A stretch of 64,000 nt of DNA from Desulfobacterales bacterium (GCA_046496215.1 JAWOHH010000139.1:8346-72345), one strand, 5' to 3'. Numbered from the stretch's first letter, positions 1,219-7,687 are shown. Numbers and translations are program-made. Notes: generated by a model not told the origin, from the letters alone.

Positions 1219-3096
1219 ATGATCCGTGCCGAAAACCTCAGCAAGAGCTATGGCGGTCGGACCCTTTTCGACCAGATGTCCTTCACCCTCAACCCCCGGG
1301 AGCGGTTGGGCCTTGTCGGGCGCAACGGCCACGGCAAGACCACCCTTTTTCGGTTGATCAGCGCAGAGGAGCATCCGGACTCGGGCGCTGTCATCATCCC
1401 CAAGAACTACCGCATCGGTCATGTCCGCCAAACGATCGAATTCACACGTGAATCGATACTAGACGAAGCCGTCTCCGCGCTCCCCCCCCACGCCCGCGAC
1501 CAGGTGTGGAAGGCCGAAAAGATCCTGGCCGGCCTGGGCTTCGCCAAGACGGACATGGACCGTTCGCCGGCCGAGTTCTCAGGGGGCTATCAGGTACGCC
1601 TCAACCTCGCCAAGGTACTCGTGTCCGAGCCCGACCTGCTCCTGCTCGACGAGCCCACCAACTTCCTGGACATCACCTCCATCCGCTGGGTCGAACGCTT
1701 CCTGGTGGCCTGGCCGCGGGAACTGATGGTCATCACCCACGACCGCAGCTTCATGGACCGGGTGGTCACCCACGTGATGGGCATCCACCGCCAGAAGGCG
1801 CGCAAGATCGCCGGCGCCACCGATGCCTACTATGGCCAGATCGCCCTGGATGAGGAGGTCTACGAAAAGACCCGTCTCAACGACGAGCGCCGCCGCAAAG
1901 AGGTGGAGCTTTTCATCACCCGCTTCCGGGCCAAGGCGCGCCTGGCCGGCCTGGTTCAGTCCCGCGTCAAGACCCTGCAGAAAATGCAGAAGAGAGACAA
2001 GCTCGAGCAGCTGAAAGAGCTCGAGTTTTCCTTCCGCGAAAAGCCGCTGCCCGGCAAGTCCGCCCTTCAGGCGAAAAACATCGGCTTTGCCTACGCCCCG
2101 GACCCGCCGCTGTTCACGGATTTGTCGATTACCGTCCTGGCCGGGGAGCGCATCGGCATCGTCGGGCCCAACGGCAAGGGGAAAACCACCCTGCTCAAAA
2201 TCCTGGCCGGCGCGCTTGCGCCGCAGACCGGGGAGGTGCTCTACCACCCGGCCGTCGACAGGGGCTTTTTCGAGCAGACCAACGTGAGCCATCTCATCCC
2301 CAACCGCACCGTCGAGGAGGAGATCCTCTATTCCGACGCCGGTGTGGACCGCCAGCAGGCCCGCGACATCTGCGGAGCCATGCTGTTTTCAGGCGACGAG
2401 GCCCTGAAAAAGATCGCCGTGCTCTCCGGAGGGGAGAAGAGCCGAGTCCTGCTGGGGAAAATCATCGCCACCCCCGTGAACCTGCTGCTCCTGGACGAGC
2501 CCACCAACCACCTCGACATGGAATCCTGCGATGCGCTGCTCTCCGCCCTCGACGCCTTCAAGGGCACCCTGGTGCTGGTCACCCACAACGAGATGTTTCT
2601 GCAGGCGCTGGCCGAGCGGCTGATCGTGTTCCGGGAAACCGGGGTGGAGCTTTTTGACGGCAGCTACCAGGACTTCCTCGACAAGGGTGGGTGGCAGGAC
2701 GAAAAGCAGGCATCAGCGGCGGAAGCGGACGCCGCCGGCGCACCGGCCGAAAATCTCAAGGCCGCGCGCAAGGAGCTGCGCCGGCGGCGCTCGGAGATCG
2801 CCGCTAGGCGCACGCGGAAGCTCAAGCCGCTGGAGGAGGAGATGAAGCGCCTGGAAAGGGAGATCGAGCGCCGGGATGCCGAAACCGCCACGCTTTCCCA
2901 GGCCATGCAGGCTGCTTCCGAAAACCGCGAGGGGGCCGTGATCGCCGACATCGCCCAGCGCCTGCACGCCGGCCAGAAGGAGGTCGACCGGCTCTTCGAC
3001 GCGCTCGACCGCGCCACCCGGGAGCATGAAGGGTTGTCCGCCGGATTCGACCAGGAACTGGCGGAGCTGGAGGCGGAGGCGGGCGGCATCGTATGA
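1219..3096 (+). CDS. ABC-F family ATPase (ribosome-associated)
   Basis: Two ABC domains (GRNGHGKT/FSGG/LLLDEPTN; GPNGKGKT/LSGGEK/LLLDEPTNHLD), no TM segments, C-terminal coiled coil. Confidence 0.93.
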   Translation: MIRAENLSKSYGGRTLFDQMSFTLNPRERLGLVGRNGHGKTTLFRLISAEEHPDSGAVIIPKNYRIGHVRQTIEFTRESILDEAVSALPPHARDQVWKAEKILAGLGFAKTDMDRSPAEFSGGYQVRLNLAKVLVSEPDLLLLDEPTNFLDITSIRWVERFLVAWPRELMVITHDRSFMDRVVTHVMGIHRQKARKIAGATDAYYGQIALDEEVYEKTRLNDERRRKEVELFITRFRAKARLAGLVQSRVKTLQKMQKRDKLEQLKELEFSFREKPLPGKSALQAKNIGFAYAPDPPLFTDLSITVLAGERIGIVGPNGKGKTTLLKILAGALAPQTGEVLYHPAVDRGFFEQTNVSHLIPNRTVEEEILYSDAGVDRQQARDICGAMLFSGDEALKKIAVLSGGEKSRVLLGKIIATPVNLLLLDEPTNHLDMESCDALLSALDAFKGTLVLVTHNEMFLQALAERLIVFRETGVELFDGSYQDFLDKGGWQDEKQASAAEADAAGAPAENLKAARKELRRRRSEIAARRTRKLKPLEEEMKRLEREIERRDAETATLSQAMQAASENREGAVIADIAQRLHAGQKEVDRLFDALDRATREHEGLSAGFDQELAELEAEAGGIV

Positions 3097-3199
3097 CCGT
3101 CAGGTCCGGCTGGACCGGATCGCTTGAAGTGATCTTCGCAAGAAGATGAGTATCTCCGATTGATGGCTGGCATGGATGGGGATTGGATAGGAGGCAAAT

Positions 3200-3346
3200 A
3201 TGGCGAAGTCGGAAATCGTCTTTCAGCTCAAGGCCACCCTTCTTGGGAGCAGACCGCCGATTTGGCGCCGAGTGTTGGTTCCGAGCGACCTCACGCTGTT
3301 TAAGTTTCATGCAGATGACACACTTCCCGTGCTATATTTACGCTAA
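3200..3346 (+). pseudogene. Truncated pRiA4b ORF-3-like (IS1096 passenger TnpR-like) gene
   Basis: AGGAGG RBS then MAKSEIVFQLKATLLGSRPPIWRRVLVPSDLTLFKFH, the recalled N-terminal motif of this family; stops after 48 aa; not in the ORF track. Confidence 0.7.
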
Positions 3347-3458
3347 TGCAGTCCACCACCTTACTCGGCCTTCATCTTTTCCACGACGGCATAGTTGCCG
3401 AGCATCTTGAGGCCCGGGTCGGGTTTGATCTCGACCTTGTCCTTATTGGGTGATAGCC

Positions 3459-3905
3459 ATGAAGTCAATTAGCCACACCAAAGCGTTTACAATGTTTGTT
3501 CCTATCGCTAAGCTGTTTCCATTGTTCACTCCTGAAGGCGAAAAGGAATGGGTTCCAGGTTGGGATTACGAGAATGTGATGGGAACATCAGATCTGTCTG
3601 AGGATTATGTATTCTTGACAAAAAAACATGATCATGGAAGTTCAAATGCAATTTGGATCGTAAAGAAATATGACTCCACCTCCCATTTCGTACAATATTA
3701 CAAGATTGAACCGAAAACCAAAATTGGTATAATTTCAGTCAAGTGTGTAGAACTTGGAACAGCCAAAACGGAAATTCAGGGCACATACAAATATCTTTCT
3801 CTATCAAAAAATGGAGAAGTGTTTGTTTCTAAATTCAGTGAAAAGGTATACAAAGAATTTATCGGTGAATGGCAAAAATTGTTAGTGAATTATTTTAATA
3901 ACTGA
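3459..3905 (+). CDS. Hypothetical protein, possibly SRPBCC/START-like fold; probable gene cassette
   Basis: AT-rich ORF with LFPLFTPEGEKEWVPGW motif; followed immediately by an attC-like remnant. Confidence 0.65.
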   Translation: MKSISHTKAFTMFVPIAKLFPLFTPEGEKEWVPGWDYENVMGTSDLSEDYVFLTKKHDHGSSNAIWIVKKYDSTSHFVQYYKIEPKTKIGIISVKCVELGTAKTEIQGTYKYLSLSKNGEVFVSKFSEKVYKEFIGEWQKLLVNYFNN

Positions 3906-3906
3906 C

Positions 3907-3942
3907 GGTTAATAATCGCATCGACTCGATCTAGCGTTAGAT
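3907..3942 (+). mobile_element. Collapsed/degenerate attC-like site
   Basis: GGTTAAT-AATCG-CATCGACTCG directly after the stop, ending in GCGTTAGAT (GTTRRRY); central arms missing. Confidence 0.35.
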
Positions 3943-4131
3943 AGTTGGTTACTATTTGATATATTGTTGGACATTCTGAAATGCCATCCGACATATCTGC
4001 AAGGTGCTACTTATTGTAATATTGTGTCATATCGAAATCTCAAGAAAACATGTATAACCAACGAAAAAAAACATACAACAGGATTCAACCCTAACTTCAT
4101 ATTTGTTTCAAAAACCGGGGGCAGGTCGAAT

Positions 4132-5397
4132 ATGAGGTACGAGAAGCAAGACACATCCAAGGCTGATCACAAACTTTTCGAAAAAATTTTTGCTTTAGAA
4201 AAGAGAATCCAAGAACTGGAGCACTCAGAATCCGAGCGCAAACAGGTGGAGAAGGAGGCATTGGCGAATCAATTGAAATTCCAGCAAACACTTATCGACA
4301 CCATACCCCACCCGATCTTCTTCAAAGATGTGGAGGGCCGGTTTGTTGGATGTAACCGAGCTTATGAGCGGGAATTTGGTACCACACGCGATTACATGAT
4401 CGGAAAAACAGTATTGGACCTCGATTATCTGCCGTTAGACGAGCGTCAACGCTTTCAGGAAGAGGACATGAGGGCCATTCGCGAGGTAGGCCGATATAGC
4501 TATGAACTGCCTATTGTTTATGCAGATGGGCAGATACACATGACGCTTTACTCGGTTGATGGTTTTGCCCTTGCTGACGGCAAACCTGGTGGATTGATCG
4601 GGATGCTGGTAGATATCACGGAGCGCAACCGGGCGGAACAGCTTGAGAAAGAGCGGGTAGAAGGAGAATTGCGAATTGCCTATAATATTCAGGCCAACAT
4701 GCTGCCCAAGACCTTTCCGCCTTTTCCCGAAATGGCGCATGTGAGCCTTTACGCTACGATGAAACCCGCACGGATGGTGGCTGGCGATTTTTTCGACTTT
4801 TTCGTTCTGCAAGACAAAAACCTCTGTTTTTGTATCGGCGATGTATCGGGCAAGGGGGTCCCGGCAGCGCTTTTCATGGTAAACACTATGAACGTTCTTC
4901 GGCAACAGTCTGCACGCAATTTTTCCCTCGATCAGGTATTTCACCAGGCCAACGCCGTGCTGTGCAGCGGAAACGAAGAAAGCATGTTCGTGACCTTGTT
5001 CATGGGAATCCTTAATACGAAGACTGGGCATTTGGAATACATCAGCGCTGGACACAATCCGCCGCTGATCTCACTTGGTAAGAGGGATTTTGAGTTTCTG
5101 AAAGTTGAGCATAGTCTTTTGATGGGTATAACCGAAGAGATCTCCTATCGCTCCTGCAAAACAGTCTTGGAGCCCGGGGACATGTTGTTTCTTTATACCG
5201 ACGGAGTTACCGAAGCGATGAATGCCGACCAAGAGTTGTTCGGAAATGATCGCACAATCTACGCATTAAACGATCTAAAGGGAAAACCTGTCCGAAAGGT
5301 GATCCAGGGCATGCGCGAGGCAATCGATGTTTTCACGGCTGGCGCTCAGGCATCGGATGATGTCGCCATGATGGCGGTGACGCTAACAACTCTTTGA
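4132..5397 (+). CDS. PAS-domain PP2C/SpoIIE (RsbU-like) serine phosphatase
   Basis: PAS (IDTIPHPIFFKD..GCNRAY) followed by VAGDFFD, IGDVSGKG, SAGHNPP, LYTDGVTEA, SDDVA. Confidence 0.9.
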   Translation: MRYEKQDTSKADHKLFEKIFALEKRIQELEHSESERKQVEKEALANQLKFQQTLIDTIPHPIFFKDVEGRFVGCNRAYEREFGTTRDYMIGKTVLDLDYLPLDERQRFQEEDMRAIREVGRYSYELPIVYADGQIHMTLYSVDGFALADGKPGGLIGMLVDITERNRAEQLEKERVEGELRIAYNIQANMLPKTFPPFPEMAHVSLYATMKPARMVAGDFFDFFVLQDKNLCFCIGDVSGKGVPAALFMVNTMNVLRQQSARNFSLDQVFHQANAVLCSGNEESMFVTLFMGILNTKTGHLEYISAGHNPPLISLGKRDFEFLKVEHSLLMGITEEISYRSCKTVLEPGDMLFLYTDGVTEAMNADQELFGNDRTIYALNDLKGKPVRKVIQGMREAIDVFTAGAQASDDVAMMAVTLTTL

Positions 5398-5498
5398 TCA
5401 ATCTAAGCGCTTAACTCTCTGTTATACTGCAAAAAGTCATTCAAGGGGTTTTATAAAGAAACCATCTAATCATTGTTGTGCCCACTGACCACTGAGAT

Positions 5499-5975
5499 AT
5501 GGAAAACATCAAAACAGAAATTAGAAACGCAATAACAACACTTGGGGATTCCACTATTGTTTGTCGTGAGCTGCCGGAATCCCAGGGTGAGGAAGTCTTT
5601 CGGGAAGCCTTGGCGCATTTCGTTGCATCAGGAGACTGCAGGTGGTGGTGGGAGGACTTCCGGAAACCCAGCACAGCAATCAAGCTGCAAGATGCTTTCC
5701 GTATCCTTCCATCACTGGTTCCAGATAAAGCTGAACTTGTATGGTTTATTGCCGAAGACGACCAACTCCCTTTTTTTCCCGTTTTCGAGTCCAACGTGCA
5801 ATCAGTATCTCAAATTGTTGGCGAGTGCTATGGATTCGAATACTACATTGTGCAAAAGCAATTTGAGTGGCTTCTCTGCGAGAACCACCATGACACACTG
5901 TTCGGGATTGGCAAAGTCGTTGAAGTGAGAATCAAGGAATTGGCGGCACAACAATCGGCTGCAGGCGACGCATAA
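5499..5975 (+). CDS. Cassette-borne hypothetical protein (DUF6756-like, possible immunity protein)
   Basis: 158 aa ORF with WWWEDF and WLLCENHHD motifs; its C-terminus runs into the attC. Confidence 0.7.
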   Translation: MENIKTEIRNAITTLGDSTIVCRELPESQGEEVFREALAHFVASGDCRWWWEDFRKPSTAIKLQDAFRILPSLVPDKAELVWFIAEDDQLPFFPVFESNVQSVSQIVGECYGFEYYIVQKQFEWLLCENHHDTLFGIGKVVEVRIKELAAQQSAAGDA

Positions 5976-6005
5976 AAGCCGCGCGGCTGAGCCAAAACGT
6001 TTTAG
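5946..6005 (+). mobile_element. Integron attC recombination site
   Basis: R'' GCACAAC, 5-nt spacer, L'' GCTGCAG ... L' CTGAGC (one extrahelical base), 6-nt spacer, R' GTTTTAG; R'' is the exact reverse complement of GTTGTGC at 5475-5481 (cassette start). Confidence 0.8.
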
Positions 6006-6167
6006 ATATTACAGTAAACTCGCCTTCCAAGAAAGCTGTTATACTGACAGCCTGTACGTCTCTGGGTCAGTTTCTGGTTGGGGAGAGTAAAATCAGGCAA
6101 CATTTGCCGAGCGAATTTGAGTTGCGAGCTTGTGACGAGCTTCAACCGGTCGACCTAAGACGCTGCT

Positions 6168-7433
6168 TCAAGGAATCCTCTTGCGAGAGAGGCCCCAGTA
6201 GAGAAGCCCGGCCGCGACCATCGATGGGATGGAGCCGCCGACCGGCAGCTTCAGTAAAGCGATCGCCTGATAAACAGCAAACCCCACCGCCCACGCCGCG
6301 AGCGCAACGGGGTTGACCCCGCGCCGGTACCAATAGAGCCCCCCCTCCCGGTAGAGCTCGCCCGCATCCAGCTTCCGCCCTCTCAGGACAAAATAATCGG
6401 TCAGCACCACCCCGAAGAGCGGGATAAACATGGCCCCGATAAAGAAGAGGAAGTTCTCGTACTGCTCCATCGGGAAGACCAGCGCCACCAGGATCGAGAG
6501 GGCGCCGGCCAGCCCCATGACCGTGCGTGCGCTCAGCCTGCGGGAGATGTTGAGCATGGAGCAGGTGGCCGAATAGACGTCGGGGAAATCGGAGGTGATG
6601 GTGGAGAGCACGACCATCGCCAGGGCGGGGACCGCCCAGCCGACCCGCCCCATGGTTTCCAGGACCACCTGGCCCGGGTCCGCAGCGCCGGTCAGAAGCG
6701 TCACCTGCAGGCCCAGGACGTACATCCAGGAGGAGACGATGAAATAACCCCACCATGTGTTCCAAAAAGCGCTGCGCGTGCTGCGGGCGGAGCGCGCGTA
6801 GTCCGCCACCAGCGGCATCCATGAGATCGGCATGGCGATGACAAGGTCCAGGGCCGTCATGAAGGCCAGCGGCGCGGCGGCCGGCTTGTCGTGCGCCGGC
6901 ACGAGGCCGGTGAACGCAATCCAGGTCATCAGGGCGATGACGGCCAAAAGGGCCAACACCGAGACGGTTTGCAACAGCTTCCAGACGGCTTTGCCCGTCC
7001 ACAGGGCCCAGAGCAGCGTCACGAGGCCGATGGCCACCACCCAGAACCCGTCCATTGCCAGCAGGCCGCCCGCGGGCGCCCCCAGCATAGCACCGGCGCG
7101 GCCGCCGATGATCAGCATGATGGCGGCCCAGCCGATGAGCTGCACGATGTTGAGCACCGCGGCGAAGTTCGACCCGCGAATCCCAAAGGCCGGCCGGATC
7201 GAGACCATCGACATGATTCCGTGCTCGGAGCCGATGATTCCACCGAGCCCCATGAGGGTGTTGCCGATGAAATGCCCCAGTAGAATGGCCCAGAGCCCGG
7301 CCCAGAAACCCAGCGGCGCCAGAAATCCGCCGGCCCAGATCTCGGCCAGCGAGATGGCCACCCCGGCCCAGAGCCAGAAAAAATCCCGGCCGCCCAAGTT
7401 GCGCTCTGCTGCCGTTACCGGTTTTATATCCAT
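6168..7433 (-). CDS. cytX: NCS1-family putative hydroxymethylpyrimidine transporter CytX
   Basis: Multi-TM protein with LWAGVAISLAEI and MPISWMPLVADY motifs; TPP riboswitch upstream. Confidence 0.85.
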   Translation of the reverse strand: MDIKPVTAAERNLGGRDFFWLWAGVAISLAEIWAGGFLAPLGFWAGLWAILLGHFIGNTLMGLGGIIGSEHGIMSMVSIRPAFGIRGSNFAAVLNIVQLIGWAAIMLIIGGRAGAMLGAPAGGLLAMDGFWVVAIGLVTLLWALWTGKAVWKLLQTVSVLALLAVIALMTWIAFTGLVPAHDKPAAAPLAFMTALDLVIAMPISWMPLVADYARSARSTRSAFWNTWWGYFIVSSWMYVLGLQVTLLTGAADPGQVVLETMGRVGWAVPALAMVVLSTITSDFPDVYSATCSMLNISRRLSARTVMGLAGALSILVALVFPMEQYENFLFFIGAMFIPLFGVVLTDYFVLRGRKLDAGELYREGGLYWYRRGVNPVALAAWAVGFAVYQAIALLKLPVGGSIPSMVAAGLLYWGLSRKRIP

Positions 7434-7484: not shown

Positions 7485-7499
7485 GCGCCTGCCGGCGCC

Positions 7500-7590
<91 letters not shown>

Positions 7591-7687
7591 CAATTTTTGC
7601 AAATGTCTTTTTATCGATTAGAGCCCGAAGCCTGTCAAGAAAAAAGATCGGCAGACGGCACCGGCCCAGCCCTCGTTGTTCCTCTTT

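Follow-up and report, generated by a model that had tools for sequence, protein, structure and literature searches.

Integrase-deficient pieces of integrons are known to travel with the help of other elements: those flanked by MITEs (transposable elements of miniature size with inverted repeats), TIMEs (miniature elements with inverted repeats, derived from Tn3) or integron mobilisation units (IMUs) depend for their mobilisation on an enzyme that another element supplies in trans. The IS1111-attC and group IIC-attC elements carry a transposase or reverse transcriptase gene within an attC site. Most attC-site clusters without an integron-integrase (CALINs) carry no intI remnant; in the portions of the survey on which we draw, 95% of CALINs stand without a nearby intI pseudogene and four routes of origin are proposed (PMC4889954). 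The same portions describe a group of co-oriented integrases, and for archaeal integrons the accessible part of another study proposes an attI directly downstream of intI (10.1101/2022.02.06.479319). For most integrons attI sites are undefined, and tools therefore miss platforms like the one reported here. It lies in an island at positions 3097-6167 of a 64,000-nt stretch of a Desulfobacterales bacterium (GCA_046496215.1, JAWOHH010000139.1:8346-72345; hereafter the window, meaning the whole stretch analysed). Within this island we read 3986-6051, with a probability of about 0.6, as an integrase-less, non-autonomous mini-integron that is likely moved whole by a small XerA-like recombinase and not by IntI.

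An initial annotation, made from the sequence alone, had described the island as an integrase-less, CALIN-like block with one intact attC cassette, and had offered a relic of an integron array or a secondary site for cassette capture as its origin. Its coordinates all hold; the attI, a gene for a PAS-PP2C phosphatase (4132-5397) and the L and R motifs that bound the unit are features absent from it. The case addresses the question of CALIN origin: its attI is defined, IntI proteins that match it are available, the unit ends are exact, and there is a candidate for a second recombinase. We found no published account of this attI, of the L/R ends or of their link to integrons, in a search that fell short of most subscription papers, supplements and figures aligning archaeal or marine attI sites.

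The DUF6756 cassette and its attI site

The integrated cassette occupies 524 bp (5476-5999, plus strand) and contains an open reading frame (ORF) at 5499-5975, which begins 24 nt after the start heptamer and encodes a 158-aa DUF6756 protein (PF20541, E 6e-23). As first annotated, that heptamer (5475-5481) is the exact reverse complement of the R'' box at 5946-5952, and the complementarity reaches 11 nt. The 60-bp site at the end of the gene (5946-6005, plus strand), already recognised by its attC boxes, is uninterrupted, possesses R'', L'', L' and R' boxes and extrahelical bases, and reaches 30.4 bits (E 1.8e-4) with a covariance model from which it was left out; the next-best match in the window has an E of 1.7. 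The model is our own and not that of IntegronFinder, with a rough calibration of E, and derives from 27 attC sites that our own grammar scanner delivered at other loci and of which one (L166) looks false; a near twin from genome G001 was excluded. It replaced a heuristic attC scanner whose 31 genome-wide hits included many hairpin false positives, and its own genome-wide search, in which 150 of 3959 candidates were scored, missed attC-like sites on contigs C130 and C158. The window's site matches an attC of the G001 integron at 28 of 31 nt. In integrated form its bottom strand folds at -9.0 kcal/mol, no better than shuffles (z 0.03), a point against the site from a z-score that is uninformative; in the form of an excised circle the site pairs along its full length at -15.0 kcal/mol.

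Homologs of the DUF6756 gene were found at four loci. At two of these, both from Roseateles, the gene is an attC-bounded cassette, standing in one case in an array of nine sites, and no attC scored at the remaining two. The initial annotation had named two findings as telling against a cassette, namely a site that fails to score with a covariance model and a gene that is syntenic in related genomes without attC. Neither was encountered: the site scores, and the junction between the flanking ABC-F and cytX genes holds no DUF6756 gene in any of 17 relatives. The attC at 5946-6005 is genuine, and the ORF is an integron cassette lacking a neighbouring integrase. By itself such a cassette is ordinary.

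The absence of intI from the window, also reported at the outset, extends to the assembly of 165 contigs (which may lack mobile genes): the TIGR02249 cut-off is not reached, and tblastn with an intact IntI returned just two Xer-type genes at 28% identity. Among 27 genomes of the genus, three pass the IntI cut-off and intI pseudogenes are common. Across genus and order there are both divergent (G023, G001) and co-oriented (G012, G019, G122) integron integrases, mostly broken.

Immediately upstream of the cassette, 5420-5477 (plus strand) is, judged by homology and position, a conserved attI of the co-oriented ('inverted') integrase type, with the crossover between 5475 and 5476, and it carries the cassette. 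A profile lacking the window's sequence finds it at E 1e-12, and in an alignment of nine sites the GTTATA-type repeats number two and the simple site, with a terminal GTT, is conserved. Homologs stand directly 3' of co-oriented intI in G122, where the IntI is intact (474 bits against a cut-off of 265), and in G097 and G019; besides G122, four attI sites lie behind a broken intI. Of 300 further genomes of the order, 12 match the 103 nt around the attI, and eight of the ten strongest matches to the region stop within 5 nt of the GTT. Contigs from sequencing runs diverge from the window at 5477/5478 once in run X2, four times in X6 and 15 times in X7, with low agreement; X1 and X2 come from one study, and the source sample may be among them. 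The genome itself has four attI without intI. Capture at a secondary site, one of the two origins first suggested, falls away, the cassette occupying a conserved attI.

The conserved GTTATA boxes are probably better read as integrase-binding repeats than as a promoter; a sigma-70 scan gave two sites against 4.1 expected, none of them near 5400-5477. An 11-nt exact direct repeat (5419-5429 and 6036-6046) is common to the head of the attI and the R motif, is missing from other R copies and possibly reflects chance or local conversion; its interpretation as a Pc promoter was dropped, there being no sigma-70 site at the attI. A second attI type (L051, L107, L124 and others) stands directly 3' of co-oriented intI in G012 and G007. 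It contains a near-perfect palindrome, one arm of which may resemble the XerC arm of dif. At C130:1197-1252 of G000 a site of this type precedes ORF 1229-2557, with an attC-like start behind it; the ORF is presumably enolase-like, a housekeeping-type gene in cassette position.

L..R units and the recombinase at their junction

The attI and its cassette are enclosed by two further motifs. The L end (3961-4022, plus strand; pattern match, positions 205-266 of the junction model) consists of the end of a recombinase-leader junction (3961-3985) and the L core (3986-4022), and the R end motif (6006-6051, plus strand; 46 nt, E 5e-13 with a profile lacking its own sequence) forms the right boundary of the unit with its last bases TGACAGC. 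Two inverted 7-bp arms about a fixed 8-bp spacer make up the L core; of its 57 copies, 51 have a preceding C. R terminates in an arm similar to that of L, plus C; inverted arms around a fixed spacer suit a tyrosine-recombinase site. The L pattern is found in 13 of the 27 genus genomes (reversed-pattern controls gave 0), in none of 400 genomes from elsewhere in the phylum when searched as an exact pattern that misses divergent forms, and in no viral contig; the R pattern is found in 11 of 27, and a stricter form of it in 30 metagenome stretches. Both are genus-level motifs. Coding remnants were ruled out as their source because copies vary by 1-nt indels.

R keeps company with attC. It also lies directly 3' of attC on two contigs of this genome, C48 and C64, where the sole further matches of the covariance model lie. 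Once the window's own locus and another with R at a contig edge are set aside, the end of a scored attC (E<=0.1) is no more than 4 nt from R at 29 of 47 loci (12 of 18 from the genus, 17 of 29 from metagenomes). The proportion is 19 of 32 with repeats collapsed and 16 of 29 minus training sites. In 38 of 64 distinct R copies, GTT begins exactly 8 nt upstream of the motif. L and intI exclude each other upstream of attI: among 23 distinct full attI sites, L lies within 300 nt upstream of 12, intI accompanies five, and both occur together at none; R follows within 6 kb downstream of 13.

Whole units recur between different neighbours in related sediment bacteria. Copies of a 1142-nt L..R unit, 96% identical, have three different left flanks and, among seven loci, six different right flanks, breaking off right before the L core (three contexts) and exactly after TGACAGC (six), and a 1846-nt unit has the same sharp ends in different flanks. 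The window's own cassette-attC-R is matched up to 6050 by record 24 of run X6, from another study, which then departs; record 22 of the same run joins the PAS-PP2C gene to the attI. Compared in this way, L..cargo..R units have fixed, sharp ends and occur in different flanks. No target duplication is visible by eye at the flanks of identical units, and the L and R ends differ. A joint of 3948 to 6141 in one X6 contig (depth 2.6) lies off the predicted ends and was not used.

The layout L-attI-cassette-attC-R repeats on contig C64 of this genome (C64:24661-25827, with a methyltransferase cassette and no integrase), and a reversed-genome control gave 0 hits. Similar or partial integrase-less units lie at C130:2785-3996, C48:1897-2006, C158:50325-50380 and C141:495-550. 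In G008:C32 (L152, 8000-18000) two such arrangements stand in tandem, L-attI(type 1)-cassettes-attC-R, a junction, and L-attI(type 2)-cassette-attC-R, a row with two attI types and no intI. A second right-end variant (L120, L104, L137, L126, L177, L203, L211) is conserved and unlike R upstream, also ends in TGACAGC, and stands before the recombinase 3' flank. Units without attI (L104, L105, L108, L117, L126, L178) have in common a promoter-like stretch after L, which may drive the cargo genes.

A junction of 170-270 bp connects R and L where the two adjoin. Partial copies of this junction begin or stop near its position 120, and at some loci a small tyrosine recombinase gene stands near that position on the opposite strand, the L side of the junction being the leader of this gene, with its ribosome-binding site. 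The junction as a MITE was rejected because the recombinase gene was found inside it. With more than 4000 relatives, many of them in frame and 278 aa long, the enzyme is closest to the archaeal XerA model, scores 44 bits against the IntI cut-off of 265, falls below every NCBIfam cut-off and is not XerC/D by NCBIfam. A survey of the genus gave 17 matches at 15 places in eight of 27 genomes; in the close clade (at least 74% identity) an R-side or L-side junction lies at the end or start of the gene at nine of ten places, and in G023:C20 a whole recombinase gene faces away from a row of L-gene-L-gene-L-gene-R. No relatives were confirmed in viral contigs. IS91-type or other recombinases lying by some copies (L130, L138) are sporadic and outside the units. 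At L203 (G023:C20:266384-267259), L170, L204 and L205 the start codon of the recombinase is out of frame, with a run of 8-9 A that is a candidate for programmed frameshifting or slippage.

We propose that the unit arose and spread in the following manner. The anatomy of the locus indicates that a co-oriented-type IntI put the DUF6756 cassette into the attI at G|TT; this enzyme would have acted in trans and probably came from a visiting integron. Sharp-ended L..cargo..R units, as the comparison of copies shows, recur between different flanks. Their ends would be the recombination sites of the small recombinase encoded between R and the next L, and this enzyme would move the unit; since the L core has two arms round a spacer and R gives the left arm, exchange would fall just after the spacer's first C. 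Units would pile up at hot spots, among them the ABC-F/cytX gap, and then decay, which would account for the broken modules at 3188-3985, and the attI would leave a unit reloadable by any passing IntI. To the broader notion of two-tier capture, in which a non-IntI tyrosine recombinase builds and moves modules, some with a working attI, so that an integrase-less genome gains many portable docking sites that any IntI could load, we give even odds.

Several observations weigh against this account. The recombinase was not found in this assembly; its close form is whole in just one of the 27 genus genomes, where a frameshift is needed; its presence (8/27) poorly tracks that of L motifs (13/27); and the distant recombinases (49-68% identity) have a junction motif at just one of five places. 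The window's own L is degenerate (E 6e-4 with a profile built without it) and lies at a distance of 1.4 kb from the attI. A direct R-to-L joint was seen once only, and none of 48 pattern-defined R ends leads into the L spacer, a result not predicted by a simple cycle of excision and insertion; the 27 genomes contain no empty attI-R site. The attI tally is biased because many loci were retrieved through the L pattern, and the counts include kin and repeated contigs, which are not independent.

How the unit moves is the point on which an alternative has most purchase. The Xer-like gene may be a mere passenger and the L..R unit mobile through IntI acting on atypical sites, through homologous recombination between junction repeats or through an unseen transposase. 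We hold this to be unlikely, with real points to commend it: the same junction position is also occupied by other genes, such as one for DUF2784, the recombinase is rare and mostly broken, and R begins at GTT, the crossover of IntI. However, GTT is not where the sharp breaks lie, which come after TGACAGC and before ATCCGAC; the leader of the recombinase itself forms the L-side junction; and a scan of 150 of the 181 neighbouring ORFs revealed no further family of recombinase or transposase recurring inside the units.

The remaining alternatives concern how the cassette came to lie here. The relic of an array proposed in the initial annotation would be a chromosomal integron decayed in place, its intI deleted or swapped for the PAS-PP2C gene so as to leave attI, cassette and a broken attC, and this we judge quite improbable. 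The L and R ends enclose the attI-cassette block, the ABC-F/cytX junction is short in four of 17 relatives and different in others, none of six long variants scanned has intI or attI, this locus shows no trace of intI, the remnant attC is placed upstream of the attI and outside its array, and one genome holds four attI without intI; all this stands against the abundance of intI pseudogenes in the genus, the phosphatase gene's place at the position of a co-oriented intI and a possible second attC, each of which would suit decay. Far more remote is the insertion of a single cassette at a non-specific genomic site (attG) to give a single attC site lacking an integron-integrase (SALIN). Such insertions are frequent and require just GWT, according to what is accessible of 10.1101/2022.09.11.507474, and the locus has one scoring attC and no integrase, but the 58 nt upstream of the crossover are a conserved attI, and mobile-system sequence, not host DNA, lies on both sides of the cassette. 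A mini-integron that a second recombinase likely moves remains our preferred reading.

Left third of the island and its chromosomal setting

The left third of the island (3188-3985), for which read support comes from one alignment, is most readily taken as debris of the same L/R system. It opens with the 5' part of a pRiA4b ORF-3-like gene (3188-3311, plus strand; PF07929, E 1.9e-8), comprising a ribosome-binding site and the first ~37 codons from the ATG at 3200; the deletion in the module runs from codon 37 to a point in the junction that follows. The piece is 96% identical to a whole gene at the same junction of G008 and 89% identical to a whole copy on contig C21, and the junction remnant that follows (3310-3333, plus strand), its L core missing, matches the pre-L stretch in C21 and G008. 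Within the leader of the next gene lies an 83-nt stretch (3362-3444, minus strand) that copies exactly a piece from inside a host oxidoreductase gene on contig C40, which from its sequence we take to be aldehyde:ferredoxin oxidoreductase-like. A 607-nt contig of run X2 bridges this insert with zero mismatches, and an allele without it exists in a run from another study; its right joint has a 4-nt microhomology and lies one base before the G|TT cassette start of the G024 homolog. The segment is an unexplained case of host DNA entering a mobile module by templated insertion.

That next gene (3459-3905, plus strand) encodes an SRPBCC-like protein of 148 aa, with 474 homologs and SRPBCC look-alikes in the Atlas, and is probably an old cassette. 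Its G024 homolog stands directly 3' of an L motif; behind homologs at 11 loci no attC scored, and two show attC-like starts by eye. The centrally deleted attC that the initial annotation saw after this gene fared less evenly than the intact one. The segment 3907-3942 (plus strand), picked after looking, aligns to both ends of the G023 attC with a 39-nt central gap and a score of 28.1, reached by none of 500 shuffles and compared with 26.8 for the best of the other 1017 decoys; the covariance model gives it no score at E<=10. A centrally deleted attC is here a plausible but weak reading.

The island, at 45.9% GC, is indeed the AT-richer block first noticed between the ABC-F (64.5%) and cytX (65.0%) genes, on contig C109 of an assembly of 3.93 Mb and 63% GC. 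To its left, the core-genome ABC-F family ATPase gene (1219-3096, plus strand; two ABC_tran and one ABC_tran_Xtn domain by Pfam) is the conserved neighbour of cytX in relatives; to its right, the cytX-like permease gene (6168-7433, minus strand) lies downstream of an ordinary TPP riboswitch (7498-7593, minus strand), besides which an Rfam scan of the window gave nothing. Inside the unit, the PAS and PP2C (SpoIIE) phosphatase gene (4132-5397, plus strand; Pfam) is a passenger at the place that intI holds in intact relatives. Across the 17 genus relatives with both flanks on one contig, the ABC-F/cytX gap ranges from 96 bp to 17.5 kb, being 96-391 bp in four and differing in the remaining ones, and the sole sequence in common with the island is the pRiA4b-like piece of G008. 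The gap is an insertion hot spot.

Comparison with known systems

A complete integron would possess an attI at the head of its array and a boxed attC cassette, both present here, and a neighbouring intI, which is absent; its IntI-catalysed attI x attC recombination would here depend on an IntI acting in trans. The integrons with inverted integrase, as far as the consulted portions of PMC4889954 describe them, are alike in having the attI directly downstream of a co-oriented intI (here in relatives), insertion at G|TT, a canonical attC and direct repeats upstream of a simple site. Unlike them, this genome has no intI and several attI, a conserved R lies behind the last attC, and where intI would stand there is L or a passenger gene.

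With CALINs and SALINs (PMC4889954; 10.1101/2022.09.11.507474, each in the parts accessible) the locus has in common an attC without a neighbouring integrase. The initial label of CALIN-like stands as regards a genuine attC cassette and a missing integrase; a CALIN in that description needs at least two attC, and the island is a doubtful member because just one scores, the second being a weak remnant. Nor is it a SALIN, the definition of which, in the same portions, excludes a neighbouring att site, whereas a full attI stands at 5420-5477. Unlike either class as described there, the island is bounded by the ends of another system.

From the integrons flanked by MITEs, TIMEs or IMUs it differs in having no matching terminal inverted repeats and no visible target duplication, and in that the linked enzyme is a tyrosine recombinase and not a DDE transposase. 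Unlike the IS1111-attC and group IIC-attC elements, it has an intact attC and no such gene in the island.

The nearest ideas are the Delta-attI cassettes and the pdif modules. Delta-attI-type cassettes of class 1 and 2 integrons (PMC12901181, in its accessible part) also place attI away from the integrase gene in arrays, as in G008:C32. There, however, a piece of attI replaces attC downstream of the ORF, whereas here the attI lies upstream and the attC is a true one, and a junction of 170-270 bp and foreign origin lies between units. The pdif (XerC/D) modules of Acinetobacter plasmids, as outlined in the portions seen of PMC6449649 and PMC7399989, are likewise accessory-gene modules bounded by Xer-family sites; unlike them, the present units are chromosomal and co-oriented, have attI-attC cassettes, and would be served by a dedicated 278-aa XerA-like enzyme encoded inside the junction. 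Loaded integrase-less platforms mobilised by another enzyme would constitute a fifth, directly testable route to CALINs, and the two-tier system, if true, would be a general source of integrase-less cassettes besides decay or off-target insertion.

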